From Ignavibacteria bacterium (GTDB lineage: Bacteria; Bacteroidota; Ignavibacteria; UBA10030; SZUA-254): a DNA stretch of 64,000 nt. The notes under the pieces were generated by a model. That model saw nothing but the letters and a program-made list of their open reading frames with translations. It did no database searches and was not told where the DNA came from. Made by a program: the position numbers and the translations under genes. Within the stretch, counting starts at the first letter, position 1. Each line of letters starts with the position of its first letter. The stretch is from contig JANNFI010000089.1 of NCBI GenBank assembly GCA_031379665.1, positions 18,170 through 82,169 of the forward strand, given 5' to 3'. Below are positions 4,962-33,291 of the stretch, piece by piece.

Positions 4962-5127
4962 GTTGAAATTTCCTTATAGTGATGGTTGATGTGATAATGA
5001 CAACTCGCTGAATTTACAATTACCCCCGAATAATGTCAATATCTTCCGGCGGTGGGCGAAAAAAAATCGTCCGCCGCATCCTTCGCGATTCCTTGATTGA
5101 CTCTCCCCTTTTGGGTATATTTTTCAA

Positions 5128-14687: not shown

Positions 14688-15769
14688 CCGATGATGGTCA
14701 TGACGATGATGAACATGACGGCGATGAGGCCGCCGTAGGTGACGAGCCGGCTCTTCTTCCCCCTCGCGCTGCTCCTGTCCCAGAACGGCACCAGCGTCCA
14801 GAGCAGCCCGGCGAGGCCGAAGAACATGATGCCGAGCACCTCCCCTTCGAAGACGAGGATGTTCGCCGGAAGGTACTTGAGCGTCTGGAACATGAACATG
14901 AAGTACCACTCCGGTTTGATCCCCGCCGGGGCCGACGCGAAGGGGTCGGCCTTCACGCCGAGCTCCCACGGGAAGAGCACCGCGAGCACGGCCAGAAGGT
15001 TCAGGACGATGAGCCAGAGCAGGAGGTCCCGGTAGAGGAAGTTCGGGAAGAAGGGCATCTTCTTCATTGGGATGGGCGGCGCCGCGCCCGGGGCCGCGAC
15101 ATCGGAGCCCAATGGCTCGCTCATCCCCTGCCGCTGGACCAGAACGAGGTGGATCCCGAGGAGGACGGTGAAGAGGCCGGGAAAGACCGCCACGTGGAAC
15201 CCGAAGAACCTCGAGAGGGTCGCGCCGGTGACGTCGGGGCCGCTCCGGAGGAATTCCAGGATCGGCTCGCCGATGAACGGCACCACGCCGGCGATGTCGG
15301 TGCCCACCTTGGTGGCGAAGAACGCCAGCTCGTTCCAGGGAAGCAGGTATCCGCTGAACCCGAAGCCCATCCCGAGGAAGAGCATCAGCATCCCGGTGAG
15401 CCAGGTGATCTCGCGCGGTTTGCGGTAAGTCCGTTCGAAGAAGACGCTGAACATGTGGATCATCGCCGACAGGATGAAGAGGTTCGCCGCCCAGCTGTGG
15501 ATCGACCGGATCAGCCAGCCGAACTCCACCTTCGACATGATATATTGAATGCTCTCGTACGCCAGGTCCTCGCTGCCTTTATAGTAGAGGAGCAGCATGA
15601 TCCCGGTGACGACCTGGATGATGAAGAGGAAGAGCGTCACACCGCCGAAGTAGTACCAGATGGAGTGGCGGTGCACGGGCACGTACTTCTTCCCCATGAA
15701 GTTCACCAGGTCCTCGAGGTGGACCCGCTCGTTGACCCAGCCGTAGGCCTTTTCGAGGGCCTTCTTCAT
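14675..15769 (-). CDS. Cytochrome b of a bc/b6f-type complex
   Basis: [21 protein letters not shown]..., polytopic with conserved His-containing helices. Start ATG at 15769 overlaps the Rieske stop (ATGA). Confidence 0.85.
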
Positions 15770-16227
15770 ACAATTTTCGCGATCACGATTTCGTCCCCCT
15801 GGACGACGACCTTGTACGGTTCGAGCGGTCTTGGCGGCGGTCCCGCGACGTTCCGGCCGGTCAGGTCGTACTTGCCGTTGTGGCAGGCGCACCAGATCAT
15901 CCCGATCTCCTTGTTGAACTGAACGGTGCAGTCGAGGTGCGTGCAGGTGGCGTCGAACGCCTTGAGCTCGTCGTCGGCCGTGCGCACGAGGATCACCGGC
16001 TTGTTGCCGAACTTGATGATCTTTCCTGAATCGCGCGCAAGGTCGTCCTTCTTCCCCGCGTTCACCGACTTCACCTCCACCTCCGCCTGCACCGGCGGCT
16101 TCAGGTACGCGAGGATGGGGTAGAAGATCGAGGCGAAGAAGGCGAGAAGGCCGCCCGAGAGGACGTACCGTAAAAAGTTTCGTTTTCCCTCATCGGGCGC
16201 CGGCCGGGAGCTGGTTGCGTTCATCAT
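15766..16227 (-). CDS. Rieske 2Fe-2S protein
   Basis: CTHLDC...CACHNGKY Rieske boxes, N-terminal TM helix, 153 aa. Confidence 0.9.
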
Positions 16228-17875: not shown

Positions 17876-20125
17876 TCATCGACCGTCGCCCGGCGGCTTT
17901 TCGGGTTCCTGTTCCGTCCCGTCCCCGGCCGCGAGCTCTTCCCTCGTCCTGTCGGCCACGATCCGTTGCAGCTCGAGCGGATGGTCCTCTTCCATCTCTT
18001 CCTCGGTCAGCGTCCCCTTCCAGAACGCCACGTTCAGGGGATACACGTCCGGGTTGAAGATCACGAAGTAGAAGTGCCACACGACGATGGCGAGCGTCGC
18101 CAGCCACGCCTCGTAGTAGTGTATGGTTCGGGCCACGTCATATCCCATTTTCGTGAGGAGGCCGATGAACGTGTTGTCGAACCACATGACGACGCCTGTT
18201 ACGCCCATGATGAAGGTGCCCCATATGAGAGCCCAGTATTCGGCTTTCTCGATGTAGGAAAACCGGTCGAAGAGCGGGCGCTCCGCTTTGAGGCCGAGGT
18301 TGTACCTCACCATCGCGACGGCGTCCCTGGCGTCACGGAGCCGCGGGAGCATGTCGTTGATAAGGCGTCGCCCCGGATGGGTGAAGAGGACGTACCAGAC
18401 GTGGTAGAAGCTCGCCCCCAGCATCACCACCCCGGCGACGCGGTGGATGACGCTGCGGGTGTCGAACACCGATCCGCTCAGCGACCTGATCCACTGCACC
18501 CACCACGCCTCGGGGAAGCGGAGCATGAACCCGGTAACGACCAGCGTCGTGAAGCTCAAAAGGAGCGCTGCGTGCTGGAACCTTTCGTTGGCCCCCATCC
18601 TCGGGTAGAGCTCGTGGCTCGTATGGGGGTGGGGGATGAGGCCGCGCCGGACCATCAGTTTCCGGCGTGATTTCCTCACGAAGTCGAGCGCGTTGTGGAC
18701 GAGCATCCCCCCGATAATGACCACGATCAACGCGATGTAGGCCGTCGAGATCCAGTAGAGCGTCGGCTCTTCCGCGCGGGAGGTCTCGTCGACGTGGACC
18801 TTGCCGACGGTAAACCGTTCGTTCGCCCCGGGATGGCAGCTGCCGCAGGTCTTTGCGAGGTTCGCGTGGTTGATCGTGGAGGTGGAATCGTCCGACGACC
18901 TGATGTTGTGCGTCCCGTGGCAGCTCGCGCAGTTGGCGACCTCGATCGAGCCGCCGCGGATGGCGAGGCCGTGGTAGCTGTCGGAGAAAGTGCGGAAACG
19001 GTCGCTCGCGATGCCGTACTTGGTCGAGAGGGCGGCGGAGCTGTGGCACGGCGAGCAGACCTGTGCCGAGAGGTTTTTCTTCGAGACGGGCGAGTTCGGG
19101 TCGTCGTGCCTGAGAATCGTATGTTCCCCGTGGCAGTCGGTACAGGTCGGCGCGTCGACAACCCCCTTCCGCACGGCCTCGCCGTGTACGCTCCCGTTGT
19201 AAACGTTCGCGATCTCCTCGTGACACTTGGAGCAGGTTTCGGAGATGTTCATCTTGCTGACTTTCGCCGTCGGGTCGTACCCCTTCGCCATCTCGTGGCT
19301 GCCGTGGCAATCGACGCAGTTGGGCGCGTCACCGTTACCGTTGACCAGCGCCCGCCCGTGGACGCTCTGTTCGTACGCGGCGATGAAGCCCGCCGACGGC
19401 GAGGACCTTTCCCTGACATCGGGGTTGTCGAGGTGGCAACTCAGGCAGAGGTGTTCCTGCGCCAGCTTCAAACCGACGGCGTCGTCGGGGTGGCTCGCAG
19501 ACGTGATGTCGTGGTCGTGACAGCTTATGCATTCCGGCGCGCCCTTCACCCCTGCGGAAAACGCCACGCCGTGCGCCGATGCGGCAAACTGCCCGACCAC
19601 ATCGTCGTGGCACCGGCTGCAGCCGTCGGAAATGTTCGCGCGGTTGAACGGCGATTCCTTCGTGTCGGGTGAAATGACGTCGTGGGTACCGTGACAGTCC
19701 TTGCACGAGACCGTGGGTTCTTCCTTCGCGGCGATTGCCCTCGCCATCCCGGGATGGAACGAGTGTTTCAATTCGACGCCCCTGTGGCAGGTGAGGCACT
19801 CCACCGGCCGTATGGTTTTCTTGTGCGGGAGCTCGTTGATGTCGAAGCCCGCGTGACAGGCCGAACAGACCAGTTTCCGATGCGGCGACCTGTCGAGGAC
19901 TGCGGCGTCGACGTGGAGCGACACCGGCGACCCGTTTCTCTCGGTCGCGAGCGATGCGTCGGAGTGGCAGGCCAGGCAGTCGTCCTTCGACTGGGCCCTC
20001 GCGGGACCGTTCAACATCCAGAACGCGGCCAGGAGGAACGCCACGGCCGCGAGGGCCACCACGAGCATCAGCCGCGCGAGCGGACTGCGTGCGGTGTATC
20101 CGGCGGATTGATCGTTGGTGTTCAT
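17876..20125 (-). CDS. 13-haem cytochrome c fused to a C-terminal dihaem b-type membrane domain (CbcL-like architecture)
   Basis: 13 CxxCH in the N-terminal ~450 aa. The C-terminal ~280 aa has 4-5 TM helices with conserved His pairs (HRVAGV...YHVWY, HYYEAW...WHFYF), resembling FdnI/HydC Ni_hydr_CYTB domains. Confidence 0.8.
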   Translation of the reverse strand: MNTNDQSAGYTARSPLARLMLVVALAAVAFLLAAFWMLNGPARAQSKDDCLACHSDASLATERNGSPVSLHVDAAVLDRSPHRKLVCSACHAGFDINELPHKKTIRPVECLTCHRGVELKHSFHPGMARAIAAKEEPTVSCKDCHGTHDVISPDTKESPFNRANISDGCSRCHDDVVGQFAASAHGVAFSAGVKGAPECISCHDHDITSASHPDDAVGLKLAQEHLCLSCHLDNPDVRERSSPSAGFIAAYEQSVHGRALVNGNGDAPNCVDCHGSHEMAKGYDPTAKVSKMNISETCSKCHEEIANVYNGSVHGEAVRKGVVDAPTCTDCHGEHTILRHDDPNSPVSKKNLSAQVCSPCHSSAALSTKYGIASDRFRTFSDSYHGLAIRGGSIEVANCASCHGTHNIRSSDDSTSTINHANLAKTCGSCHPGANERFTVGKVHVDETSRAEEPTLYWISTAYIALIVVIIGGMLVHNALDFVRKSRRKLMVRRGLIPHPHTSHELYPRMGANERFQHAALLLSFTTLVVTGFMLRFPEAWWVQWIRSLSGSVFDTRSVIHRVAGVVMLGASFYHVWYVLFTHPGRRLINDMLPRLRDARDAVAMVRYNLGLKAERPLFDRFSYIEKAEYWALIWGTFIMGVTGVVMWFDNTFIGLLTKMGYDVARTIHYYEAWLATLAIVVWHFYFVIFNPDVYPLNVAFWKGTLTEEEMEEDHPLELQRIVADRTREELAAGDGTEQEPEKPPGDGR

Positions 20126-20132
20126 ATTGGCC

Positions 20133-20972
20133 TCAGCGCGCGAGTTTCACGTCGTTGATCGCCTCGACCACGAGGGGAAAATACCGGTCGAGGGCGCATT
20201 CGACGTCGTCGCGCAGGTTGCAGCTTCCGCCCGGAGACTGGTGCACGCAGACCGAACAGACTTTTTCCCTCAGCCGTGCGACGAATGGCCCGATGTCGTC
20301 GCCTCCGGTGGTGAGCACGATGTCGATGATCTCAGGCAGGTAACGGTTGATGGCACACTCGTCAAAGGTGGAGGTGACGCAAAGCCCCGTCGGGGTGCGG
20401 TCGAGGCATTTCGCGCACACCCTCTGCCGGATCTCCCGGAGATACAGTTCTTCGTGCGACATGGAGTTCTCCCCTTCCATTTCCCAGTTTGTGGTTTCGG
20501 CAGGCTTCCGCGCGGTCCGTCCGGGCTTCACGACCATCACCGGTATGGAGGCGCCTCGCAGGATCTCCCCGGCGATTCCACCGGTGCGGACAGGATCACC
20601 CGCCGGCTCCCCTCCGGCCGGAAGCGGGAGCACGATGATGTCCATCCCTTCCTCCCGCGCGAACCTCAGGATCTCCGCGGCGGGCACCCCCCTGCGGACG
20701 ATACAGGCAAGCCGGGAATTCGGCCTGACCTTCTTCAGGAAGAACTCTTCCATCGCGTGGTATTTTTTCCGGAGATCCGGATCATCCTCCGCCGGTGATG
20801 CGTGATTTCCCGGGGCGAACCTCTCTTCGGGCGGGGTGATGACGTGAATCAGGTATATCTGTGATTTTTTTCCGTCGGAGAGGGCCAGGGCGGCATCGAG
20901 CGCGCATAATGAGGTGTCGGTGAGGTCGACCGGTACCAGAATCTTGTCGATATGTGCGGCTTTCTTCGACAT
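20133..20972 (-). CDS. Universal stress protein domain fused to a duplicated 4-Cys C-terminal module
   Basis: UspA-like N-terminus (KILVPVDLTDTSLCALDAALAL...VLPLPAGG). C-terminal repeats are VCAKCLDRTPTGLC..ECAINRYLP and VCSVCVHQSPGGSC..ECALDRYFP. Lies 7 bp upstream of the CbcL-like gene. Confidence 0.7.
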   Translation of the reverse strand: MSKKAAHIDKILVPVDLTDTSLCALDAALALSDGKKSQIYLIHVITPPEERFAPGNHASPAEDDPDLRKKYHAMEEFFLKKVRPNSRLACIVRRGVPAAEILRFAREEGMDIIVLPLPAGGEPAGDPVRTGGIAGEILRGASIPVMVVKPGRTARKPAETTNWEMEGENSMSHEELYLREIRQRVCAKCLDRTPTGLCVTSTFDECAINRYLPEIIDIVLTTGGDDIGPFVARLREKVCSVCVHQSPGGSCNLRDDVECALDRYFPLVVEAINDVKLAR

Positions 20973-21033
20973 ACCTGTATGAATAATAGACATCCGCGGA
21001 CACACGGGGTATGACCTCTGAAAGGTTCCGATA

Positions 21034-21139: not shown

Positions 21140-21853
21140 CTAGTCGGGAATGCGTGCCGCCTCTCGAAGGGCGCGCAGGTTCACAATGCTGATCTTTTTC
21201 CCCTCGAGAACGATCGTCCCCTCCCTCGCGAGTTCGGAGAGCACTCGGATGACCGTCTCCGACACCGTGCCGATGTAGCTGGCGATTTCTTCCCTGGTGA
21301 GCCTGCTGCGCAGCGTGTGCCCGTCGTCCTCGGTGCCGTAGAATTCCTTCAGCATCAGGAGCGTCTCGGCCAGACGCTCCCTCACCTGTTTCTGGGCGAG
21401 TGACACCTGCTTCTGTTCGGCCCTGGCGAGGTCCTGCGTCAGTTGACGCATGATGCCTGCGGTGAGCGCGGGGTTTTCTTTCAACAATAGTTGGAAGGTC
21501 TGGCGTGGAATGAAGCAGATCGACGCGTCCTCCAGCACGGTGGCGGTGAGTTCGTACGGCGTCCCGCTCACGAGCGCCCGGTACCCGACCACGTCCCCCT
21601 CGCGCGCCAGGCGGACGATCTGTTCACGCCCCGCCTCGCCGACTTTCGTCAGCTTGACCTTGCCCTGATTGAGGCAATAGAGTCCCGACGGGTAATCGCC
21701 CTCGTAGAAGAGGACCTGGCCGCTCCTGTGGAAGTTGCATCCTTTGTGGAGTTGGAGTTTTCCGAGTTCCTCCTGGGAGAGGACGCTGAACATCGAATGG
21801 AGCCGCGGCAGGCAGGTCTCGCAGTGCGGTATCTCGAAAAGATTTTTCATCAC
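21140..21853 (-). CDS. Crp/Fnr-family transcriptional regulator with N-terminal Cys cluster
   Basis: cNMP-binding domain plus C-terminal HTH (EIASYIGTVSETVIRVLSELAREG). The N-terminal HCETC...C pattern is reminiscent of Fnr. Confidence 0.8.
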   Translation of the reverse strand: MMKNLFEIPHCETCLPRLHSMFSVLSQEELGKLQLHKGCNFHRSGQVLFYEGDYPSGLYCLNQGKVKLTKVGEAGREQIVRLAREGDVVGYRALVSGTPYELTATVLEDASICFIPRQTFQLLLKENPALTAGIMRQLTQDLARAEQKQVSLAQKQVRERLAETLLMLKEFYGTEDDGHTLRSRLTREEIASYIGTVSETVIRVLSELAREGTIVLEGKKISIVNLRALREAARIPD

Positions 21854-21854
21854 G

Positions 21855-22790
21855 CTATAAAATCTCGGAGATCTCGTGAAGGGTGAAGCGCGTGCGTTTC
21901 CCCTTGAGCGCGACGTCGTTGAACGTTTCCCTTGGGCGCACCCGCCCGAAGACCTCGCGCAGCGCCGCGTCGGAAATGAGCATCGACGTGCCGGTCTGTT
22001 TGTTGGCCTCCTCGATTCGCTCGGCCACGTTCACCGCATCGCCAATGACGGCCATTTTTTCCATGTTGGCCATGCCAATGGTGCCGATCACCACAGGGCC
22101 GTAATGGATCCCGATGCGGACACGGAACTTCCGCCGGTACATCGCCTGCAGGTAGGGGTTCAGCGAATCGACCTCCCAGAGCATCTCGAGTCCGGCGCGG
22201 ATCGCGCGGTAGACCGGATCAGGAGCGTCGTCGATCCCGAAGAGCGCCATGATGCCGTCGCCGATGTAGTCGTTGATCCGGCCGCCGTGAGAGTCGATCA
22301 CCCGCCCCATTGTGATGAAGTACCTCCGGAGCGCGTGGATGACATCGTACGCCGGGAGCGACTCCGCGAACGATGTGTAATCGCCGATGTCCGCGAAGAG
22401 GATGGCCAGGTGTTTCTCCTCTCCGACCGACCCTAGCTTGAGACCATGGCCCGTCTGGTCGGCGAGCTGAATGTCGAGCGTGTCGAGGACCGTACGCCGG
22501 ACGGTGACGTCGCCGTTGACCCTGGTCTGACAGGCGAGGCGCACCTGGGGATCGAAGTTGAGCCTGCCCGCAATTTTCTCTTCGGCGCCCTGGCGCGGCG
22601 AGCAACGGTCGAGGCCGGCGATTACCACGACACGGCAGGTGGAGCACCTGGCCTTCCCGCCGCAAACGTGGACGTGGGGGATCCCGGAATCGAGGGAGGC
22701 CTCGAGGATGGTGGTCTCTCCGGATGCCTCCATCTCTTTCTCGTCGGGGAGCATCAAGATCTTGTTCATCGCCTCACCGTCAGTTGCCAT
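21855..22790 (-). CDS. 2Fe-2S ferredoxin domain fused to class III adenylate/guanylate cyclase catalytic domain
   Basis: N-terminus has CGGKARCSTCRV...C (plant-type ferredoxin). The C-terminal CHD has FADIGDYTSF...RIGIHYGPVVIGTIG...GDAVNVAERIE. An alternative start at 22769 (MNKILMLPDEK) also fits. Confidence 0.8.
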   Translation of the reverse strand: MATDGEAMNKILMLPDEKEMEASGETTILEASLDSGIPHVHVCGGKARCSTCRVVVIAGLDRCSPRQGAEEKIAGRLNFDPQVRLACQTRVNGDVTVRRTVLDTLDIQLADQTGHGLKLGSVGEEKHLAILFADIGDYTSFAESLPAYDVIHALRRYFITMGRVIDSHGGRINDYIGDGIMALFGIDDAPDPVYRAIRAGLEMLWEVDSLNPYLQAMYRRKFRVRIGIHYGPVVIGTIGMANMEKMAVIGDAVNVAERIEEANKQTGTSMLISDAALREVFGRVRPRETFNDVALKGKRTRFTLHEISEIL

Positions 22791-23414: not shown

Positions 23415-23562
23415 GATGGTTGTACCCCGGTATAAGTGTTTGTGATTGGAATCGATCATTTTAGCCCAAGGGAAGGAATTGCAAGATAACAACGGCGGAG
23501 GGTAAATACAAGTTCCGCGCGACAGGCCGGGGACAACAGTCCTTAAAAATGAGGGGATTACC

Positions 23563-23931
23563 CTATTGTAGCAGTACTGTTCCATTAAAGCGTGAATAAT
23601 GACAACTGGTTACAGGATCTGTGGGGACCAGGGCCCCATTGGCATGAGCCAGCGTGTTCCGTGCGACGACGCCGCGTAAACTACAATGGTAAAGTTTCTT
23701 CCGGAGCGCACCAAGACATGTTTCGATATCCCGGAGACTTTTTCTGAGGGTAATCTGGGCAAATGCCAGAGCTACGAACTGACTGCGCCGCGAGAACCGT
23801 TTGACGTAACGATCCCCCTGATATCGTCTGACGCACCGGCGGAACTCCGGCATCGGGAGGAAGTCCCTGAGTTGAGCGAAGACCGTTTTTCCCCTGTGTT
23901 CATCTACCCATCCTAACCCGAGGAGAAACAT
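23563..23931 (-). mobile_element. IS4-family (DUF4372-type) transposase N-terminal fragment, truncated remnant
   Basis: MFLLGLGWVDEHRGKTVFAQLRDFLPMPEFRRCVRRYQGDRYVKRFSRRSQFVALAFAQITLRKSLRDIETCLGA matches the N-terminal region of IS4/ISPg1-like transposases. The ORF stops after 122 aa and the DDE catalytic part is absent. Confidence 0.6.
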
Positions 23932-24205
23932 CAGAATAGGTGGGGAATTGACACTGTCAAAGTTCTAATCTATTGCTCTCTTTTAATGTCGTAACGCGGT
24001 CACGTACAATGTGTTACAAGGATTTATGAAAAGTTTTTTGAGACAGTATTGCTATTGTATCTCAAGATAATCGTTCCTACCTTACGGTATGTTACAACAT
24101 TCAGCGATTTACATATCGGAAGTTCGGGACGCACGTGAACGATTATTAAGGTAGGCGTCAAGCTTCAATTCTCGCTTAGAAACTCGGTGGAGATTTAATC
24201 AAGCG

Positions 24206-24709
24206 ATGCGAATAACAAAAGTACTTGGCATTCGCATATTTGGGGTCGTTATATTTTGCATCCTAATGCTTGATGTAATTTTTCTCACGTTGGAAAATAG
24301 AGAACTTAAAACCGCTCTCGATGCCGTTGCCCAGCGCGACGAAAGCCCTCAGCTTCCCGGGATGGTTATACCTACTTTTGGTGCTTTGACTCTGGGAAGA
24401 AACGCAGTCACACTTAATCTTGCTGATTCAGGTAAGCATTATCTTCTTTTTTTACTCTCCGCAGACTGTCACGCGTGTGAATCCACGTTAGGCTCATGGA
24501 ACTCCTTTAAGACCGAGGGTAACGTCGAGATACTGGGTGTATCGCTCAGTAATTACGAGGAGACCGTCCGATATGTGGGTTCTAATAGTGTCGAGTTTGA
24601 TGTCTTGACGCTGTCAGATCCGAATTTTATCCCCACAATCAAAATTAGAAGTATCCCATTAACCATCCTCATAAACCCGAGAGGGGTCGTCGTTAAATCG
24701 TGGGGGTGA
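24206..24709 (+). CDS. Membrane-anchored thioredoxin-fold (TlpA/ResA-like) protein with CHAC active-site motif
   Basis: N-terminal TM helix. YLLFLLSADCHACES is a CxxC motif in a thioredoxin-like context, and IPLTILINPRGVVV is a cis-Pro region. Confidence 0.55.
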   Translation: MRITKVLGIRIFGVVIFCILMLDVIFLTLENRELKTALDAVAQRDESPQLPGMVIPTFGALTLGRNAVTLNLADSGKHYLLFLLSADCHACESTLGSWNSFKTEGNVEILGVSLSNYEETVRYVGSNSVEFDVLTLSDPNFIPTIKIRSIPLTILINPRGVVVKSWG

Positions 24710-24825
24710 ATACTGTCACCAAGCGATCTACAAGATATTCGATCCCTCCTCATATCGGAGAATATTTCAGATAATTCCAAGCCATAAATAATTATCAACT
24801 CAATCAACCAACCTAGGAGGGAGTC

Positions 24826-25047
24826 ATGAATGCTTTTCCGAAATCCAGCCTGCTTTATGTTATTGGATTCGTCATTGCCATGGCGGGTTTAATTCAGCTA
24901 AATGTTACCGTAGCCAAAGCGGACCTCCCTCCATGTCCCACAGTGTGTTCTTGTGATGACCCGAGGCCGGGTGGGTGTGCGTGGAACTGTAACGGACAAA
25001 TCATCTCAAATTGTGGGGCATACTACAGTTTCTGCTGTCATTCTTGA
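24826..25047 (+). CDS. Secreted cysteine-rich small peptide (10 Cys in the C-terminal 42 aa)
   Basis: AGGAGG lies 7 nt upstream of the ATG. Signal peptide ends ...VTVAKA, followed by DLPPCPTVCSCDDPRPGGCAWNCNGQIISNCGAYYSFCCHS. Confidence 0.55.
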   Translation: MNAFPKSSLLYVIGFVIAMAGLIQLNVTVAKADLPPCPTVCSCDDPRPGGCAWNCNGQIISNCGAYYSFCCHS

Positions 25048-25179
25048 TGTTCCAGGGGAGTGAGGGTCACGCTCTCTCGTCCTGAATGAACAGCGGATTG
25101 CTGTCCTTTGACAAACATCACCCCTAAGTTATCATTAAAAATAAAAGATAGTGCATTGATAACATAGGGGTGAAATATT

Positions 25180-25938
25180 ATGATGAAAGTATGCTTGGGA
25201 CTAGCATTATTCTTACTCGGCTGTGTGCCGTGGGGATTTGATAAATCGGATGCTATTGTTGCACGCTCAATGACATCATGGTCTGATCGCGATTGTTTGA
25301 CAATCATGCTTTCAGCGATGCAGCATAATTATTACGATCCTGAGAAACCGCCGATTTTGGCTTGTGTGACACCGTACACACCGAGAGTTGTCATGGCATT
25401 GAACCGAATGTCTCAGCTTAAACATCGATGGTCAGATGAGACACTCCAGCACCACGCGGATGCGCTCCTCAAAGACGCGTCAGGGCTGTATGCGGATTGG
25501 GAGCATAATGCTCAGATCTATGATTCAAAGTTAAATCGACTTCGGGATCCAACACAGATGGATTCGATAACATTTCTCGTTACCCTTTCGAATCGGACAT
25601 GGCCGTGCGCTCCGCCGGTACTACTTACGTTGGACAACCTGACTGGTGACAAAACCCCACAGTTCATGCAGTTGTCAGACTGGCCGTGCGAGGTTCCCGA
25701 TCTCACTAATATTGAGTCGAATATATTTTTGATCAACGATCGCGGTGATACCGTGAGACCGAGGTATGTCTGGGGACGGAAAGATGACCAACTCAGAACC
25801 GACGAGACGTTACTAGTGATGTTTCCACTTCGGTCTGAAAATACACATTTATTCGAAAATTCAACTCAGATAACCATCGCATTCGCCGAGTTCACACCTA
25901 AACTCCAGCTGACGTTTCCTTTGGCCTCCTTGCGATAA
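25180..25938 (+). CDS. Lipoprotein, hypothetical (island cargo)
   Basis: 252-aa ORF with MMKVCLGLALFLLGC lipobox. No recognised domain. Confidence 0.5.
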   Translation: MMKVCLGLALFLLGCVPWGFDKSDAIVARSMTSWSDRDCLTIMLSAMQHNYYDPEKPPILACVTPYTPRVVMALNRMSQLKHRWSDETLQHHADALLKDASGLYADWEHNAQIYDSKLNRLRDPTQMDSITFLVTLSNRTWPCAPPVLLTLDNLTGDKTPQFMQLSDWPCEVPDLTNIESNIFLINDRGDTVRPRYVWGRKDDQLRTDETLLVMFPLRSENTHLFENSTQITIAFAEFTPKLQLTFPLASLR

Positions 25939-26213
25939 CTGTAGGTCAACCCCATCAGATTAGGCAAAAGCATTGGCCCAACAATTGTTGGACATTTTTT
26001 TATTATAGAACATTTCAATAGTTATCTCTGCTCTTTGGGGTCGTAGATACTAATTTCCGAGGTGGATCACTTTGAGGGGAGCCGGTCATTCATCGAGACG
26101 CCGCTAATTTTTCAACAAAGCCATTGCGCTTCTCACCGAATATCCCTTTACACCTATGTCGATTCGTTACCAATCACCAGCATTGCTCCCAATAAAATCT
26201 GACCGGAACGGAG

Positions 26214-26396
26214 TCACGAGCAAAATTGATTCTTCAAATTTCCATATGTAGGCGAAATAGCTTTTGATGGATCGTACCCTAAAAATTCGACAATTTTGGA
26301 AGACCGGCACTTTCCAGGATTCTCCCTTCCACTTTCCCACCCCAAGTACGTATTTCGATTGACACCTAGAAGTGCCGATGCTTGATAGGCAGTCAA
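26214..26396 (-). pseudogene. XRE-family HTH regulator, 5'-truncated at the island/host junction
   Basis: LTAYQASALLGVNRNTYLGWESGRENP is a canonical HTH_XRE second half. Upstream in frame the HTH continues as LRQRRVDLNL into GC-rich sequence with no ATG/GTG before a stop, so the ORF-track start is a TTG. Confidence 0.45.
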
Positions 26397-26481
26397 GTTG
26401 AGGTCAACCCGCCTCTGCCTCAGGTGATCCGGGGGCGACAGGCTGGGGATGGGGCGGGGGGAACACGGTGCGGCGCGGCCC

Positions 26482-28056
26482 CTATTTCATCAGGTTCATT
26501 TTTCGCACCATCTGGTGGGACCCGCTCCGCATCCTGCAAAAATAGATGCCGGAGGGGAGCGCCGAAGCGTCGAAGGTGACGCTGAACCGGCCCGTCCCCG
26601 GGTTGCCGTCCACCAGGGTTGCGACCTCGGCGCCGAGCGTGTCGTACACCCTGATGTTCACCGGTCCGCCGTCGGACAGAAACGAAATGACGGTCGAGGG
26701 ATTGAACGGGTTGGGATAGTTCTGGCTGAGGCTGATGGTCTCAGGGAGGCCGTCCGCGGCGGCCGCGGTCGGATCGACGATCGGGAGCACCTGGAAATTC
26801 TGCAGCAGGACCGCGTCGAGGACATCCTGCGGCACGCCGAACCACTGCCGGAGCACCGATGCGTACACCTGACGGAAGTCGTATTGCATCTCCAGGTTGT
26901 CGTTGTTCGAGACCAGATCGGGAATCACCGGATTCGCGCCCGTGATGCCGTGGTTGATCGCTTTGCCAAAGAGGATGACGGGCGCCGCCTCGCCGTGGTC
27001 CGTCCCGAAGCTGGAGTTCGACTTGATCCTGCGACCGAACTCAGAGAAGGTCATCCCGATCACGCGGTGGTCCGCCCTCAGCAATCGGAGGTCCTCCTGG
27101 AACGCGAAGATCGCCTCTGAGAGTTTGCCGAGGAGGTCGGCGTGGTTTCCGAACTCCGTCCCGAGCGTGCCGTCGACCTGGCCGGCGTGGGTGTCGAATC
27201 CCCCGATGTTGGTGACGTAAATGCGTGTCTTCAGCCCGCCCGCGATGAGTTTGGCGACGATCTTGAGCTGGTCGGCGAGCCTGTTCGACCCGGACGGCGG
27301 ATAGACCGGCGACTGCGACGGCACTCTTTCTGCGGCCGCCTTGATCCTGTCGGTGTAGACCGACGTCTGATTTACGACCTGCCGGATGAACGTCAGCTCG
27401 TGGCCGGCGGGCGTGTCTGGGGCGGTATCGACGCCGCCGGTGAGCAGCTGGTAGAACGACGTGGGGCTGGTGATGGCCATTCCGAGCGAGCCGTTTGGTC
27501 CCTGGAGCCCCGTCGAGACCACCGAACCGATCTGGATCGCCAGTGGGTCAGGCATGATTTCATTCGGATACCCGATGGGAAAATCGGCGTAGGTCTGGTC
27601 CAGCCACCTGCCGAGCCATCCCGAGTTCAACGTCTCGTCAGCGTCCGAACCCGTCAACCAGATGTCCATGCCGCGGAAATGCGATTTGTTCGGGTTCGGA
27701 TAACTCACTCCCTGGACGATGTTCAGCCGGCCGTCGGTGTAGAGGTTCTGCAGCCCCGACATCGAGGGGTGGAGCCCCGTCTCGTCGGTGAGCTTCAGTA
27801 CCTTGTTCTCGGGGATCACGATGTTTCCACGGGCGTTCATGAGGGCAGGGTACTGGTCGAGCGGGATCACCGTGTTGAGCCCGTCGTTGCCGCCGTTGAG
27901 CTGGATCAATACGAGGACTCGGTCGCTCGGCGTTCCCGCGCTGATCAGGCTCTCGAGGACCTTTGACCGCCCGTAGGTTTTGATGTTGAAGCCCCCGAGG
28001 AGGAACGGGAGGAGGGCGACGGGGGCGGAATTCCTGATGAATGACCTTCTTCTCAT
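26482..28056 (-). CDS. DUF1501-family (alkaline-phosphatase-like superfamily) protein with Tat-like signal and T9SS C-terminal sorting domain (copy A)
   Basis: MRRRSFIRNSAPVALLPFLLGGF is a twin-arginine-like motif. The C-terminus NYPNPFNPSTVISF...VYDTLGAEVATLVDG...GIYFCRM...KMNLMK matches the Por_Secre_tail pattern. Confidence 0.75.
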   Translation of the reverse strand: MRRRSFIRNSAPVALLPFLLGGFNIKTYGRSKVLESLISAGTPSDRVLVLIQLNGGNDGLNTVIPLDQYPALMNARGNIVIPENKVLKLTDETGLHPSMSGLQNLYTDGRLNIVQGVSYPNPNKSHFRGMDIWLTGSDADETLNSGWLGRWLDQTYADFPIGYPNEIMPDPLAIQIGSVVSTGLQGPNGSLGMAITSPTSFYQLLTGGVDTAPDTPAGHELTFIRQVVNQTSVYTDRIKAAAERVPSQSPVYPPSGSNRLADQLKIVAKLIAGGLKTRIYVTNIGGFDTHAGQVDGTLGTEFGNHADLLGKLSEAIFAFQEDLRLLRADHRVIGMTFSEFGRRIKSNSSFGTDHGEAAPVILFGKAINHGITGANPVIPDLVSNNDNLEMQYDFRQVYASVLRQWFGVPQDVLDAVLLQNFQVLPIVDPTAAAADGLPETISLSQNYPNPFNPSTVISFLSDGGPVNIRVYDTLGAEVATLVDGNPGTGRFSVTFDASALPSGIYFCRMRSGSHQMVRKMNLMK

Positions 28057-28063
28057 GGCATCC

Positions 28064-29767
28064 TCACGTCAGCTGGTATTCGGGCATCGAGAGCATCACC
28101 GAGAGGAGTTCACGGAGCTTTGTGGTGATGGCGGCGGCCTTCCCGGGATCCGTGGGATCCGACACGTAATCGGACCATTCGATCGTCCACTCGTAATCGG
28201 GCAGGCCCGGGAGCAACGCGTCCTTGAGGAACTCCTTCTGCACCGGGGTGATCGCGATGGGGTAGAGGAATTCGGCCCACTCGTCGATGAGCCCGTTCGG
28301 ATCGGCCGGGTTTGAGCAGAGATTTGCGAACGCGATCGGGTCGATGGACTGCCTGAACCCGTTCTGGAAGTACCCGGTCCCGGACAATCTGTCGGTGAAC
28401 TCCGTCCTCCCGGCGAGCGTGTCGGCGTTGATCCACATTTCATAATACAGCGGGTCCTGGTGGTACGCCGGCCACCCGGCCACGCCGGGCGGATCGAGCA
28501 GCTCCTGCTGCATGGCCGTGGCCCGCGTGGAGAGGTACCGCCAGTGATTGTACTGTGCGAGGAGCGCCGGGTTGTCGACGGCCACGGGATACGAAACAGA
28601 ATGGGTGCGCGCCGTGCCCACGGTCAATTCGACCGGGCTCTTGATCACGCATCCGACGTTGACGTTGTCGTAGAAATGGGCGCTCTTGAGGAGGGCGGCG
28701 AGCGCCGGCTTGATCTCGTAATTGCTGTTCCGGAGGATGTCGGCCATCGGTGCGATGACGTTGGCCTCCGCCGCGGCGTCGATCACATAGTAGACGAACC
28801 AGCGGTAGAACTTTCTGCATATGTACCTGGCGGTCTCGGCCTGCAGGAAAATCATGTTCAGGAGGTCGTCCACTTCGTTGGCGCCGGCCGCGCCCTCCTG
28901 TCCCGCGATCACGGTGTTGCCGTACGCCTGCGAAAACTGCTTGTTCCCCGCGTCGTGCCTGCTGGCGGTGAAATAGGATACGAAGGTCGCGCTGCTGTCC
29001 CTCCACCCGCTCAGCACGCGAGCGGCCTCCTGGACGTCGAGTTCCGTGTAATTGGTGTAATTCCCGGGACCGATCTCGGCGCCCTTCCCGATGGTGAAGA
29101 GCTCCTGCAGCTCTCGCGCGTAATTTTCGTTCTGGTTGTTATCCGTGTTCGAGTTCCCGTTGAGGAACCGGAGCATCGCGCCGTCGAGTGTGACGAGCTT
29201 CGTCAGGTCCCGAAAATTCCCGAGGGCGTGCTGACGCAGGAGGACGTGGTTCCTGTAGGTGTGGCGGGCGTCCCCAATCACCGCGGATTCGGTGGCGAAA
29301 TGGTTGTGCCAGAAGAGCGTCATTTTTTCGCGCAGCGAAGGACCCTGGCCGAGCATCAGGCTGACCCACCACGACCGGAGCGAGTTGTGGCGCAATCCGC
29401 CGGATGCGGACGTCGGCGCGTTGATCCAGGTCGTGCCCGCCGGCGCCTCGGGGTCGCTGTCGTTGTAACTCACCGGAGGATCGGGGACGGCCGGCTCGGT
29501 GAGGAGGAGGTCCACGAGGTCGCCGACACTCAGGGCGGACAAGGTCGCCACCTCCTGTGGCTTCAGCCCGAACATCGTTCGGCGAAGGAGGTGCCTGACC
29601 TGCCCGACTCCCCAGGGCCCGCCGTAAGGCTCCAACCCTGCGACGCTCCTCGGGACTGCCGGGATCGATTTATTGGCGAAATCGCTCGGCTCGAATTTCC
29701 TGCGCTCGCGCCGCTCGACCGGCCGGTCCGTTTCGGCGACGGTTGAGATGAATTCCCTGCGTTTCAT
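28064..29767 (-). CDS. DUF1800-family protein (copy A)
   Basis: HLLRRTMFGLKPQEV... is DUF1800-like. It pairs with the DUF1501 gene in the widespread pairing seen in other genomes. The ATG at 29767 (MKRREFIST) was chosen by alignment with copy B. Confidence 0.7.
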   Translation of the reverse strand: MKRREFISTVAETDRPVERRERRKFEPSDFANKSIPAVPRSVAGLEPYGGPWGVGQVRHLLRRTMFGLKPQEVATLSALSVGDLVDLLLTEPAVPDPPVSYNDSDPEAPAGTTWINAPTSASGGLRHNSLRSWWVSLMLGQGPSLREKMTLFWHNHFATESAVIGDARHTYRNHVLLRQHALGNFRDLTKLVTLDGAMLRFLNGNSNTDNNQNENYARELQELFTIGKGAEIGPGNYTNYTELDVQEAARVLSGWRDSSATFVSYFTASRHDAGNKQFSQAYGNTVIAGQEGAAGANEVDDLLNMIFLQAETARYICRKFYRWFVYYVIDAAAEANVIAPMADILRNSNYEIKPALAALLKSAHFYDNVNVGCVIKSPVELTVGTARTHSVSYPVAVDNPALLAQYNHWRYLSTRATAMQQELLDPPGVAGWPAYHQDPLYYEMWINADTLAGRTEFTDRLSGTGYFQNGFRQSIDPIAFANLCSNPADPNGLIDEWAEFLYPIAITPVQKEFLKDALLPGLPDYEWTIEWSDYVSDPTDPGKAAAITTKLRELLSVMLSMPEYQLT

Positions 29768-29969
29768 CGTTTGATCCTTATTTCGTGCGGTCTTCATAGG
29801 TAGGGAAAACCCGCCGGCGAAACAAGATTTCGCGGAGAGAGTGTGTCGGGGATCACTTTAAAACAGGAGGGGAACGCCACCTTCACGAACGAAGATGCGC
29901 GCCGTCACCTTTTTCGAAGGGGAGCGAGCAAGAAAAAAATCGTCCCGGTGGGGGGATTGTCGGGGTGGG

Positions 29970-31577
29970 TTACTTCACGAGGATCATTTTCCGGACTTCC
30001 TCGTGGGCACCGCTCCGCATCCTGTAATAATAGATACCCGCCGGAAGCGACGAGGCGTCGAACGTGACGCTGAATCGGCCCGCCCCCCGGTCGCCGTCGA
30101 CGAGCGTCGCCACCTCAGCGCCCAGCGTGTCGTACACCCTGATGCTCACCGGGCCGCCGGCGGACGTGAAAGAGATGGTCGTCGATGGGTTGAACGGGTT
30201 CGGATAGTTCTGGTCGAGCGCACCATTCACCGGAATGCCGGCGGCGAGCGCACCCTCTCCGCTGACGATCGGAAGTCGCGGCTGGGGCAGCGGCCCGATC
30301 AGCGGCAGCGCCTGGAAGTTCTGCATCAGCACGGCGTCGAGCACGCCCTGTGGCACGCCGAACCATTGTTGAAGGACGGACGCATACACCTGTCTGAAGT
30401 CGTACTGCATTGCCAGGTTGTCGGTGTTCGTCACGACGGCCGGGATCAGCGGGTTCGTGCCGGTGATGCCGTGTTTGATCGCCTTGCCGAACAGGATGAC
30501 GGGCGCGGCCTCCCCGTGGTCGGTCCCGAAGCTGGCGTTCGACTTGATCCGCCGGCCAAACTCCGAGAAGGTCATCCCGATGACGCGGTGGTCAGCCCGC
30601 AGGACGCGAAGATCTTCCTGGAACGCGAGGATCGCCTGGGAGAGTTTTCCGAGGAGGTCCGCGTGATCGCCGTACTCGGCGCCGAGCGCCTGGTCGATCT
30701 GCCCCGCGTGCGTGTCGAACCCCCCCAGGTTCGTGATGTAGATTCGGGTCTTGAGGCCCCCCGCGATGAGTTGGGCGACGATCTTCAGCTGGTCGGCGAG
30801 CTTGTTGGTCCCGGGAGCCGGGTAGAGAGACGACTGCGCCGGCACCTTGGCGGCCGCATCCTTGATCCGTTGGGCATAGACCGACGTCTGTTGTGCGACC
30901 TGCCGGATGAACGTCAGCTCGTGGCCGGCGGGCGTGTCGGGCGCCGCGTCCACACCGCCGGTGAGTAGCTGGTAGAACGAGGTGGGGCTGGTGATGGCCA
31001 TTCCGAGCGAACCGGCAGGCCCCTGAAGTCCGGTCGAGACGACCGACCCGATCTGGATCGCGAGCGGGTCGGGGGCTATCTCGTTGGGGTACCCGTTCGG
31101 GAAATCGGGGTACGTCTGGTCGAGGTACCGTCCGAGCCAGCCGGTGCTCAGCGTCTGGTTTGCGTCCGAGGCGGTCAACCAGATGTCCGTGCCGCGGAAG
31201 TGTGACTTGTTCGGGTTCGGGTAGGTCACCCCCTGCACGATGTTCACCCGTCCGGCCGTATAGAGATCCCGCAACCCTGTCATCGAGGGGTGGATCCCCG
31301 TCGCGTCGGTGAGTTTCAGGACCTTGTTCTCCGGGATGACGATGTTTCCGCGGGCGCTGACCAGGGCCGGGTATTGGTCGAGCGGGATCACCATGTTCAG
31401 CCCGTCGTTCCCGCCGTTGAGCTGGATGAGGACCAACACGCGGTCGCCGGGCGTGCCTGCGCCGATCATCCCCTCGAGGACCTTCGAACGGCCGTACGTC
31501 CTCACGTTGAAACCGCCGAGGAGGAACGGGAGGACGGCGACGGGTACGGAATTCCTGATGAAAGCTCTTCGTTTCAT
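29970..31577 (-). CDS. DUF1501-family protein with Tat-like signal and T9SS C-terminal domain (copy B)
   Basis: MKRRAFIRNSVPVAVLPFLLGGF, and high identity to copy A along its full length. C-terminal Por_Secre_tail-like domain. Confidence 0.75.
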   Translation of the reverse strand: MKRRAFIRNSVPVAVLPFLLGGFNVRTYGRSKVLEGMIGAGTPGDRVLVLIQLNGGNDGLNMVIPLDQYPALVSARGNIVIPENKVLKLTDATGIHPSMTGLRDLYTAGRVNIVQGVTYPNPNKSHFRGTDIWLTASDANQTLSTGWLGRYLDQTYPDFPNGYPNEIAPDPLAIQIGSVVSTGLQGPAGSLGMAITSPTSFYQLLTGGVDAAPDTPAGHELTFIRQVAQQTSVYAQRIKDAAAKVPAQSSLYPAPGTNKLADQLKIVAQLIAGGLKTRIYITNLGGFDTHAGQIDQALGAEYGDHADLLGKLSQAILAFQEDLRVLRADHRVIGMTFSEFGRRIKSNASFGTDHGEAAPVILFGKAIKHGITGTNPLIPAVVTNTDNLAMQYDFRQVYASVLQQWFGVPQGVLDAVLMQNFQALPLIGPLPQPRLPIVSGEGALAAGIPVNGALDQNYPNPFNPSTTISFTSAGGPVSIRVYDTLGAEVATLVDGDRGAGRFSVTFDASSLPAGIYYYRMRSGAHEEVRKMILVK

Positions 31578-31584
31578 GTCGTCC

Positions 31585-33291
31585 TCACGTCAACTGGTAT
31601 TCGGGCATCGCGAGCATCACCGAGAGCAGTTCGCGGAGCTTCGTGGTGATCGCGGCGGCTTTCCCCGCGTCGCCCGGATCGGACACGTAGTCCGACCACT
31701 CGATCGTCCATTCGTAATCGGGCAGTCCCGGGAGGAGCGCATCCTTCAGGAACTCCTTCTGCGCCGCCGTGATGGCGATCGGGTAGAGGAAATCCGCCCA
31801 CTCGTCGATCAGGACGTTCGGGTCCGCGGGGTTGGAGGAGAGGTTCGCGAACGCCACAGGGTCGATGATCTGGGTGAAGGCGTTCTGCTTGTACCCCGGC
31901 CCGGCCAGGACGTCGGTGAACTCGGTCCTGTTGGCGAGCGTATCGGCATTGATCCACAATTCGTAGAAGATCGGGTCCTGGTAGTACGCCGGCCATCCGG
32001 CGACGCCCGGGGGGTCGAGCAGCAGCTGCTGCATCGCCGACGCCTGGGTCGACAGGTACCTCCAATGGTTGTACTGCGCGCTCAGGTTCGTCCCGTTGGG
32101 CAGCGCCACCGGATAGACGACGGAGAACGTCCGCGCGGCGCCGACCGTCAGGTCGGCCGGACTCTTGATCACGCAGCCGGTGTTTACGGGGTCGAAGAAA
32201 TGGGCGCTCTTGAAGAGGGCCGCGAGCGCGGGTTTCACGTCGTAGTTGTTGTTCCTGAAGATGTCGGCCATCGGCGTGATGACGTTGGTTTCAGCCGCAG
32301 CGTCGATGACGTAGTACACGAACCAGCGGTAGAGCTTGCGGCAGATATACTTCGCCGTTTCGGGCTGCGCGAAGATCATCGTGATGAGGTCGTCGATCTC
32401 GTTGGCGCCCGCGGCGCCGGCCTGCCCCGTGATGATCGTGTTGCCGTAGGCCGCGGAGAACTGCTTGTTCCCGGCGTCGTGCCGGCTCGCGGTGAAGTAC
32501 GACACGAAGGTGGCGTTGCTCTCCCTCCAGCCGCTCAGCACCCGGGCGGCCTGCTGGACGTCCACCTCGGTGTAGTTGGTGTAGTTGCCCGGGCCGATTT
32601 CCGGGCCCTTGCCGATGGTGAAGAGCTCCTGCAGCTCGCGCCCGTAATTTTCGTTCGGGTTCGCGGCGGTGTTGGTGTCGCCGTTGAGGAACCGGAGCAT
32701 CGCGCCGTCGAGGGTGACGAGCTTCGTCAGGTCCCTGAAGTTTCCGAGGGCGTATTGCCGGAGCAGCGCGTTGTTCCGGTAGGTGAACCGGGCGTCGCTG
32801 ATGATGGCGGCCTCGGTGGCGAAATGGTTGTGCCAGAAGAGTGTCATTTTTTCCCGCAGGGACGCGCCCTGCGCGAGCATCAGGCCCACCCACCACGAAC
32901 GGATAGAGTTGTGCCTCGAGCCGTTCGAGGTGGACGTCGGTGCGTTGATCCAGGTCGTTCCCACGACCGAGCCGGTGTCGGCGGCATTGATGTTCAGCGG
33001 GGGATCGGGAAGCGCGGGTTCGGTGAGCAGGAGGTCCACAAGCGCGTTGACGCCCAGACCGGATAGCGCCGTCACGTCCTCGGGTTTCACACCGAACATC
33101 GTCCGGCGCAGGAGGTGCCTCACCTGCGCGGCGCCCCAGGGCCCGGCGTACGGTTCGAGTCCGGAGGCGCTCCGCGGAACACTCGGCAGCGACTTGTTGG
33201 CGAAATCGCTTGCCTCGAACGCACGCCGCGCTCGCCGCTGAACCGGCCGGTCGGCCTCGCCGACGGTCGAGATGAATTCCCTGCGTTTCAT
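31585..33291 (-). CDS. DUF1800-family protein (copy B)
   Basis: Paralog of 28064..29767. Begins MKRREFISTVGEADRP. Confidence 0.7.
   Translation of the reverse strand: MKRREFISTVGEADRPVQRRARRAFEASDFANKSLPSVPRSASGLEPYAGPWGAAQVRHLLRRTMFGVKPEDVTALSGLGVNALVDLLLTEPALPDPPLNINAADTGSVVGTTWINAPTSTSNGSRHNSIRSWWVGLMLAQGASLREKMTLFWHNHFATEAAIISDARFTYRNNALLRQYALGNFRDLTKLVTLDGAMLRFLNGDTNTAANPNENYGRELQELFTIGKGPEIGPGNYTNYTEVDVQQAARVLSGWRESNATFVSYFTASRHDAGNKQFSAAYGNTIITGQAGAAGANEIDDLITMIFAQPETAKYICRKLYRWFVYYVIDAAAETNVITPMADIFRNNNYDVKPALAALFKSAHFFDPVNTGCVIKSPADLTVGAARTFSVVYPVALPNGTNLSAQYNHWRYLSTQASAMQQLLLDPPGVAGWPAYYQDPIFYELWINADTLANRTEFTDVLAGPGYKQNAFTQIIDPVAFANLSSNPADPNVLIDEWADFLYPIAITAAQKEFLKDALLPGLPDYEWTIEWSDYVSDPGDAGKAAAITTKLRELLSVMLAMPEYQLT

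Follow-up and report, generated by a model that had tools for sequence, protein, structure and literature searches.

A candidate three-gene cassette with a cysteine-rich exported peptide and a divergent TlpA/ResA-fold protein in a decaying low-GC island of an Ignavibacteria genome

The window considered here is a 64,000-nucleotide stretch of the genome of an Ignavibacteria bacterium (GenBank assembly GCA_031379665.1, contig JANNFI010000089.1, positions 18,170 to 82,169 of the forward strand), and our subject is a 73-codon open reading frame (ORF; 24826-25047, + strand) for a cysteine-rich peptide that lies in it between a thioredoxin (Trx)-like gene and a lipoprotein gene. All three genes sit inside a 2.9-kb island (approximately 23534-26434) with a GC content of 0.445-0.458, against 0.616-0.631 in its flanks. 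Besides these genes the island holds a transposase fragment and a helix-turn-helix (HTH) fragment, and nothing else (Table 1).

A first-pass annotation, made from the letters of the window, had described a 73-residue ORF with a strong Shine-Dalgarno (SD) sequence and a Sec-type signal ending in AKA, and each of these elements is present. The SD sequence is a perfect AGGAGG that ends five nucleotides ahead of the ATG and outranks all others among the 23 genes examined in the window; about half of 20 host genes checked have an SD-like motif of any kind, and none matches it in strength. On inspection, the pre-peptide begins with MNAFPK, continues through a 19-residue hydrophobic stretch and closes its signal with NVTVAKA, an arrangement typical of Sec-type signals with an AxA site. 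The mature region, previously put at 42 residues with 10 Cys, proves on counting to comprise 41 residues with eight Cys (positions 5, 9, 11, 19, 23, 31, 38 and 39), a Cys content of 19.5% that includes CxC, CC and CxxxC motifs. It also contains five Pro and four aromatic residues (W, Y, Y and F), carries a net charge of -2 and has a pI of 4.4.

The Cys density of this ORF is non-random. It ranks first among the 323 ORFs of at least 60 residues in the window, and when the island was shuffled 2000 times, 0.15% of the shuffled sequences yielded any ORF with at least eight Cys per 41 residues (P about 0.0015). The ORF is furthermore unbroken and identical across three assemblies. An AlphaFold2 (AF2) model of the pre-peptide, computed from the single sequence, renders residues 6-32 as one helix and gives the mature region a predicted local distance difference test (pLDDT) score of 48-56, at which disulfide connectivity, the knottin pattern (I-IV, II-V, III-VI) included, is unreadable.

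By following the lipoprotein family we located comparable cassettes in two other genomes, at loci here called L003 and L009. The L003 cassette consists of a Trx gene (3-404; 33% identity, E=3e-16), an uncalled peptide ORF of 69 codons (462-671; 10 Cys, cleavage site VQA, C-terminal end ...LCSAICPPCDFCKQYPCQDICNRVCFNGLWTNCDAYCSTGCQ) and a lipoprotein gene (779-1564). That of L009, an Ignavibacteria metagenome-assembled genome, comprises a Trx gene (4332-4907, 191 residues), a lipoprotein gene (4917-5726), a 73-codon peptide ORF (5799-6020; nine Cys, GGAGG as SD, signal ending ...NTDIASA) and a second lipoprotein gene (6590-7264). In both cassettes the genes are co-oriented and tightly spaced, and the Trx orthologues carry CPHC. 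GC profiles place both in low-GC islands within high-GC genomes, at unrelated chromosomal sites: the L009 cassette adjoins an enolase-like gene (judged from its product sequence) and the L003 cassette adjoins ffh. Three different settings, counting that of the window, point to three independent insertions. A fixed-order operon was rejected, the order being Trx-peptide-lipoprotein in the window and in L003 and Trx-lipoprotein-peptide in L009.

Two details of these loci deserve mention in their own right. The L003 peptide ORF lacks ATG and GTG; TTG at 462 is its only canonical start, from which the signal has no charged n-region, and an in-frame ATA at 432, five nucleotides after GAGAGG, would give a better signal (MRTIERSLLV...); either a non-canonical start or an error in the assembly could account for this. 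In L009, a transposase-like fragment flanks the cassette on its Trx side (3489-3779, - strand; ...DNLPLHQSE...AWTPTYSSRLNLIE...), IS630/DDE-like by eye, which mirrors the IS4 fragment of the window.

The three peptides have in common the first C-x3-C, Pro richness, a pI of 4.4 and an AxA-type site (AKA in the window, ASA in L009, VQA in L003); n-, h- and c-regions are visible in each on inspection, and a 19-residue h-region is also compatible with an anchor. Full-length pre-peptides resemble one another weakly but significantly (z = 2.9-6.1 relative to shuffles that preserve composition). When signal-like ORFs with four or more Cys were scanned for, one match emerged in the 64-kb window and one in L009, the weaker L003 signal being missed; a looser scan (signal-like, at least three Cys) found none beside the lipoprotein gene at 10 loci without a Trx gene, and Cys-only scans agree. 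Because feature-equivalent ORFs adjoin the orthologues of the Trx-like and lipoprotein genes at both L003 and L009, the small ORF is, to judge from sequence and synteny, very probably a genuine gene that evolves fast and is linked to the oxidoreductase.

The peptide has no homologues in protein databases. In a word-indexed search of 5.8 billion protein clusters the sole match of the peptide was the peptide itself, and an exhaustive phmmer search of 1.84 billion representatives gave spurious matches only, which we set aside as artefacts (translated tandem repeats, and actinobacterial repeat proteins with a short 'LNVTV...PCD.PRP' in common). Searches of Pfam, NCBIfam, PADLOC and PDB sequences with all three peptides yielded repeat artefacts or no match at all. 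A 15-billion-protein collection lacks the L009 and L003 peptides, which were never called as genes, so the empty searches are partly explained by counterparts that are uncalled small ORFs. The first-pass annotation had held that an untranslated ORF without homologues would refute its idea; the databases contain no homologue, and feature-equivalent ORFs accompany the orthologous genes of L003 and L009.

The Trx-like gene upstream encodes, in its current form, 167 residues that open with a hydrophobic anchor, IRIFGVVIFCILMLDVIFLTL. Its CHAC motif (residues 88-91, nucleotides 24467-24478) aligns with the CPHC of the orthologues and with the CEPC region of ResA, and its cis-Pro loop IPLT (24653-24664) aligns with LPTT of ResA; the CxxC and the cis-Pro loop are common to the Trx orthologues, as is an anchor motif, LTLEN..LKT. 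Against Pfam the protein stays just under every relevant cut-off (AhpC-TSA 24.5 bits against 26, Redoxin 23.1 against 26.6, Thioredoxin_8 21.4 against 27), whereas the L003 orthologue clears that of AhpC-TSA (32.9 against 26). Its best profile matches are ResA and StoA, it reaches 26 bits in the ResA model NF002854 against a cut-off of 170, and it matches solved ResA structures at E=3e-6 (1st9, E=3.4e-6). In the word-indexed protein search it retrieved only itself and missed the L009 orthologue held in the same collection, which marks the sensitivity limit of that search.

The gene is broken in this genome. An in-frame TGA (24707-24709) cuts the frame, which continues as ILSPSDLQDIRSLL... to a TAA at 24785-24787; the segment beyond the TGA, ILSPSDLQDIRSLLISENISDNSKP, corresponds in alignments to the C-terminal helix in the orthologues (GELSTKDVQELEDFM and similar) and in ResA, and ResA aligns over the full length of the reconstituted 193-residue protein. 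A complete thioredoxin fold with its last helix is therefore absent from the window allele and present only in the reconstituted reading or that of L001, an independent 834-bp metagenome contig 99.76% identical to the window and different at just two positions. At the first (L001 position 408), GGA stands for the TGA at 24707 and restores the 193-residue frame; at the second (L001 position 257), TAG stands for TAC at 24554-24556 and turns codon 117 into a stop. The TGA allele is confirmed by a third assembly (L019), which does not differ from the window. This three-way comparison indicates that the ancestral gene was intact and that two haplotypes with different nonsense mutations exist in the population. 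Both differences in 834 bp are thus nonsense changes that affect the Trx-like gene, each haplotype having one of them, a pattern suggestive of parallel and possibly selected inactivation. The module is probably not fully functional in this genome, given the nonsense mutation that truncates its Trx-like gene. In the ancestral arrangement the Trx-like stop would have stood 38 nucleotides ahead of the peptide ATG, a gap that points to a bicistronic unit.

An upstream membrane-anchored thioredoxin-fold protein with a CHAC motif had been part of the original proposal; the anchor, the fold matches and the motif are there, and the ORF that should encode them is interrupted. To judge by its sequence the protein is a divergent TlpA/ResA-fold protein and no ResA/CcmG equivalog, and a standard ResA or CcmG, the identity that the first-pass annotation had named as fatal to its idea, does not fit. 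The score of 26 against 170, the lack of cytochrome-maturation genes (resB/resC, ccsBA, ccdA) in the window island and in the L009 and L003 islands, and the CPHC of the orthologues together support a gene functionally linked to the peptide over a housekeeping ResA/CcmG.

The third gene encodes a 252-residue lipoprotein with the N-terminus MMKVCLGLALFLLGC and an LLGC lipobox (Cys15) that is conserved in its homologues, which were found at 31-83% identity. Its family is marked by two invariant Cys, in WPC (Cys143) and DWPC (Cys170), and by a PxYVWGR motif. Searches of Pfam, NCBIfam, PADLOC and the PDB with the lipoprotein gave no match; its AF2 model has a pLDDT of 69.7, and the best Foldseek match in the PDB, 3fjv (function unknown), is weak and uninformative at a template modelling score of 0.40-0.49. 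The majority of the family stands alone in unrelated contexts, with neither peptide nor Trx gene. A Trx gene is absent at L002, L004, L006, L011, L014 and L017, and L004, L006, L011 and L014 also lack a peptide gene; at L002, which holds the closest homologue (83% identical), a SET-domain gene precedes, and at L017 (61% identical) no upstream gene was called. Homology between the window and L002 begins at 25106 and takes in a promoter-like TTGACA-16-TATCAT. From this shared promoter-like region and the mostly solitary family we infer that the lipoprotein gene is a separate unit joined to the Trx-peptide pair.

The first-pass annotation had cast the lipoprotein as an immunity or receptor protein; the promoter-like region and the many loci without peptide or Trx gene leave this unsupported, and either role is pure conjecture. 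With its two invariant Cys the lipoprotein could instead be a second substrate of the oxidoreductase. The family is tandem-duplicated in L004 (625-2131) and is present twice in L009, where the second paralogue lacks the WPC...DWPC Cys loop. A 17-nucleotide inverted repeat (25118-25134 and 25157-25173, 94% complementary) overlaps the SD of the lipoprotein gene. It was discarded as a conserved regulatory hairpin, L002 having kept the 3' arm and having three uncompensated changes in the 5' arm; the TTATCA...TGATAA halves persist and could form an operator. A terminator-like hairpin with a T-run follows the gene.

The island bears further marks of transfer and decay. Its left edge holds the initial part, approximately 100 codons, of an IS4-family transposase gene (DUF4372) and its right edge an XRE-type HTH gene without a 5' end, the frame of which extends upstream into host-GC sequence without a start codon. 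Copies of a 15-nucleotide direct repeat, 14/15 identical, mark both GC transitions and are a candidate island junction, although the pair is only weakly significant by itself. Neither the lipoprotein, the Trx protein nor the island DNA matches viral contigs, plasmids or phages, and Rfam detects nothing within the island. Horizontal acquisition of the module, as the first-pass annotation had claimed, is supported by the low-GC island with its transposase remnants and by the three loci in three different, unrelated chromosomal contexts. The cassette is decaying in this genome, as is evident from the truncated transposase and HTH genes, the nonsense mutation in the oxidoreductase gene and the different one in the sister strain.

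Table 1. Annotated features of the low-GC island, in window coordinates
Feature	Position	Strand	Basis
Left copy of 15-nt direct repeat, GCGACAGGCCGGGGA	23519-23533		Left GC drop
Truncated IS4-family transposase, N-terminal DUF4372 part, 122 aa	23563-23931	-	PF14294 E=1.7e-28; NF033592 positions 1-73/332
Membrane-anchored TlpA/ResA-like thioredoxin-fold oxidoreductase (putative), 167 aa	24206-24709	+	Profile and ResA structure matches; orthologues in L009, L003, L007
Premature TGA (24707-24709) and in-frame C-terminal helix remnant ILSPSDLQDIRSLLISENISDNSKP to ancestral TAA	24707-24787	+	L001 GGA; ResA/orthologue alignment; L019
Shine-Dalgarno AGGAGG	24815-24820	+	5 nt 5' of peptide start codon
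Predicted signal peptide of pre-peptide, 32 aa, ends AKA	24826-24921	+	Inspection
Mature Cys-rich peptide (predicted), 41 aa, 8 Cys, 5 Pro, pI 4.4, plus stop codon	24922-25047	+	Translation, composition
Promoter-like TTGACA-16-TATCAT	25108-25135	+	Upstream of lipoprotein gene; L002 homology from 25106
Lipoprotein of uncharacterised family, 252 aa; LLGC, WPC, DWPC	25180-25938	+	Homologue alignment
Terminator-like hairpin plus T-run	25978-26001	+	After lipoprotein gene
5'-truncated HTH_3 (XRE-type) fragment	26214-26396	-	PF01381 positions 10-53
Right copy of 15-nt direct repeat, GCGACAGGCTGGGGA	26435-26449		Right GC rise

We propose, with a confidence evenly poised between belief and doubt, that 24206-25938 is a horizontally acquired three-gene cassette, originally a bicistron plus a separately promoted gene, in which a peptide is paired with a dedicated oxidoreductase. 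The first gene would encode a 193-residue membrane-anchored TlpA/ResA-fold thiol-disulfide oxidoreductase, its catalytic domain presumably facing the periplasm, the second the 73-residue pre-peptide, and the third a lipoprotein under its own promoter-like region. Sec would export the pre-peptide, which appears from its sequence to be cut after Ala32 (between AKA and D), and an acidic, Pro-rich 41-residue peptide with eight Cys would be freed into the periplasm. The dedicated oxidoreductase would then make or shuffle up to four disulfides in it. The mature sequence would evolve very fast, with position, signal, Cys richness and charge retained. The disulfide role of the oxidoreductase is suggested by its strict co-occurrence with the peptide and by the DsbA-type CPHC of the orthologues (the window copy having CHAC). 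The dipeptide of CPHC is that of DsbA, the most oxidising CxxC known. An oxidase role is favoured by this orthologue motif and by the bacteroidetocin precedent, compared below.

Several points weigh against this proposal. TlpA/ResA-type proteins are classically reductants and not oxidases, and a re-oxidising partner (DsbB or VKOR) is not found in the cassette. Nor does the cassette contain an outer-membrane exit route or an immunity gene, or the peptide show cationic character, as would be expected for many bacteriocins. The instances number only three; with composition controlled, their mature parts are not significantly similar (z = -0.4 to 2.9), so that homology is unproven, and the Cys differ in number (8, 9 and 10, odd in L009) and in spacing. 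The L003 ORF has a weaker signal and can start only at TTG or the non-canonical ATA, the AF2 model of the window peptide is uninformative across its mature region, and a further locus, L007, has Trx and lipoprotein genes with no peptide between or after them, the upstream side lying off the contig.

Four other explanations were weighed. The peptide might serve in the periplasm as a ligand that binds a thiophilic metal (Cu, Zn or Cd) through its thiolates, acting as a buffer or chaperone of metallothionein type whose Cys the TlpA-like protein keeps reduced, which we regard as rather unlikely. Parallels for a reductant exist in TlpA acting on ScoI and CoxB and in the Scs proteins of copper tolerance. 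The CxC, CC and CxxxC motifs, the pI of 4.4 at all three loci, the odd Cys number of the L009 peptide, the classically reducing nature of the TlpA/ResA fold and the existence of Cu-linked operons with Trx-like genes, for example scsABCD, are all consistent with such a ligand. The orthologues, however, carry the strongly oxidising DsbA dipeptide, and Cys spacing is unconserved among the three peptides, which is unusual for a metal site. For all its metallothionein-like motifs the window peptide, at 19.5% Cys, includes four aromatics (W, Y, Y and F) atypical of metallothioneins, and none of the three islands contains a metal transporter, a metal sensor or a CcdA/DsbD electron donor.

Of similarly low probability, in our estimation, is a functional pair made up of the oxidoreductase and the lipoprotein, with the WPC...DWPC Cys as substrate and the small Cys-rich protein as an accessory, an uncleaved membrane-anchored subunit or a hitch-hiker. 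The Trx and lipoprotein genes are adjacent at four loci, L007 without a peptide among them, the lipoprotein offers two invariant Cys, and the 19-residue hydrophobic stretch could serve as an anchor, consistent with the single helix that AF2 assigns to residues 6-32. But most lipoprotein loci (the six enumerated above) lack a Trx gene, the Cys loop is missing from the second L009 paralogue, and the peptide tracks the Trx gene and not the lipoprotein as such. The ancestral 38-nucleotide spacing likewise joins the peptide to the Trx gene, whereas the lipoprotein gene has the promoter-like region it shares with L002, and an AxA-type cleavage site occurs in all three peptides.

Less probable again is that the 73-codon ORF is non-functional, a chance ORF or dead remnant in a junk island. 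The absence of a homologue from 5.8 billion protein clusters or 1.8 billion representatives and the visible decay of the island (its transposase, HTH and Trx genes all truncated) would be expected of such a remnant; yet the SD of the ORF is perfect, its signal is intact and its Cys density is extreme (shuffling gives P about 0.0015), and it remains intact and identical in three assemblies and has feature-equivalent ORFs in the same cassette of two other genomes, counterparts whose never having been called as genes explains the empty searches. Finally, that the Trx-like protein is an ordinary ResA/CcmG serving the multihaem cytochromes 4-10 kb to the left (genes at 13149-14969 and 17876-20125), its proximity to the peptide coincidental, is highly improbable: ResA and StoA are its best matches, but this idea is contradicted by scores (26 bits against 170), by composition (a foreign low-GC island, whereas the cytochrome genes are at host GC), by synteny (no adjacent resB/resC/ccsBA/ccdA, and orthologues that sit with lipoprotein and peptide near enolase in L009 and near ffh, away from cytochromes) and by nonsense inactivation in two strains.

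Within our preferred reading, a peptide with a dedicated oxidoreductase, the function of the peptide is a separate matter. The toxin or bacteriocin activity suggested by the first-pass annotation is unsupported: all three peptides are acidic (pI 4.4), and they come without a transporter, a double-glycine (GG) leader or a recognisable immunity gene. We would entertain, as a distinctly more doubtful extension of the proposal, that the three loci are a first glimpse of unannotated mobile cassettes of Ignavibacteria-type genomes (Fibrobacteres-Chlorobi-Bacteroidetes, or FCB, group). Each might combine a Sec-exported, hypervariable multi-disulfide effector, for example an antibacterial knotted peptide, with its own oxidase, of TlpA fold and with the DsbA motif, and with a novel lipoprotein; gene callers would miss the peptide genes, and the nonsense alleles would reflect selection to switch the module off.

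As a decaying passenger, the cassette has little practical importance for this genome. Should the module operate as proposed, it would extend the principle of a peptide served by its own disulfide catalyst, known from bacteroidetocins and glycocins, to Sec-exported peptides of 8-10 Cys in a poorly studied lineage. The case also shows that protein catalogues systematically omit such peptide genes, two of the three here never having been called, and synteny-guided searches around orphan Trx-like genes could reveal many more. The peptides themselves would be candidate new disulfide-rich scaffolds.

The host genes around the island encode a YceI protein, a CRP regulator, a ferredoxin-cyclase fusion, two DUF1800/DUF1501 pairs with type IX secretion system (T9SS) sorting domains, and multihaem cytochromes. 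The T9SS domains indicate an affiliation with the FCB group. The cytochromes belong to a respiratory cluster at host GC (13149-14969, 14675-15892 and 17876-20125, all - strand) with a cytochrome b and two multihaem cytochromes c (c7, c3, paired-CXXCH), of which one is a fusion with a cytochrome b561 domain. Next to it, 20133-21005 (-) encodes a universal stress protein domain that is extended at its C-terminus by a segment with several Cys pairs (CAKC, CVTSTFDEC, CSVC and others). Immediately upstream of the CRP-family cyclic nucleotide (cNMP)-binding regulator, 21140-22790 (-) encodes a fusion of a 2Fe-2S ferredoxin domain with an adenylate/guanylate cyclase domain; fusion and regulator could form a redox-sensing cyclic-nucleotide circuit. 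To the right, 26482-29797 and 29970-33291 (-) are tandem paralogous pairs, each of a DUF1800 and a DUF1501 gene with a T9SS C-terminal sorting domain, and the upstream regions of both DUF1501 genes are near-identical (gaataccag[c/t]tgacgtgagga). Farther on, 34857-36815 (+) encodes a 652-residue fusion of a DCC1-like thiol-disulfide oxidoreductase domain with lipase maturation factor domains (LMF1, LMF1_C), whose family is known chiefly from eukaryotes.

Among characterized systems, the ResA/TlpA/CcmG/StoA proteins share with the Trx-like protein an N-terminal anchor and a Trx domain with CxxC and cis-Pro loop, and they supply its best sequence and PDB matches. It differs from them in scoring far below the family cut-offs, in the truncation of the window allele, in a CxxC dipeptide of PH (orthologues) or HA (window) in place of EP, VP or PT, and in its partners, a Cys-rich peptide and a lipoprotein instead of genes for the assembly of cytochromes or Cu centres.

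Glycocin clusters (sublancin, pallidocin, enterocin F4-9) encode their own thiol-disulfide oxidoreductases, and the likeness lies in a ribosomal multi-disulfide peptide encoded with dedicated thioredoxin-family genes. In contrast to them, the present cassette has no glycosyltransferase and no ATP-binding cassette (ABC) transporter/peptidase, belongs to a diderm host, and uses a Sec leader and an unrelated Cys pattern. Defensin-like bacteriocins (actifensins, PMC6989792; laterosporulin) are also small, highly divergent multi-disulfide peptides from variable loci, but they are cationic and have six Cys arranged as C...CxxxC...C...CxC (CS-alpha-beta). This pattern is ruled out for the window peptide, in which CxC (9-11) comes before CxxxC (19-23) and the C-terminus is CC.

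The closest parallel in organization is found in the bacteroidetocin loci of Bacteroidetes, at which a Cys-containing peptide toxin depends for its full activity on a thiol oxidoreductase encoded in the cluster (Coyne et al. 2019, PMC6671954); those authors cite a lack of general disulfide (Dsb) machinery in Bacteroides, and Bacteroidetes reportedly lack it. These class IIf peptides resemble ours in being small, exported and Cys-containing, with approximately 42 mature residues, in adjoining a dedicated thiol oxidoreductase, in belonging to a mobile or variable cluster, and in a host phylum group reportedly without general Dsb machinery (PMC6671954). They differ in a 15-residue double-glycine leader, against a Sec signal with an AxA site and no GG before the mature part, and in a C39-peptidase ABC transporter and a five-transmembrane-segment protein, neither of which occurs in the window island. 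They have two to four Cys and a charge of +2, compared with 8-10 Cys and acidic character here, without sequence similarity, and a lipoprotein of a new family is present in our cassette. By this comparison, the cassette appears to resemble bacteroidetocin clusters in its logic without being a member of that family.

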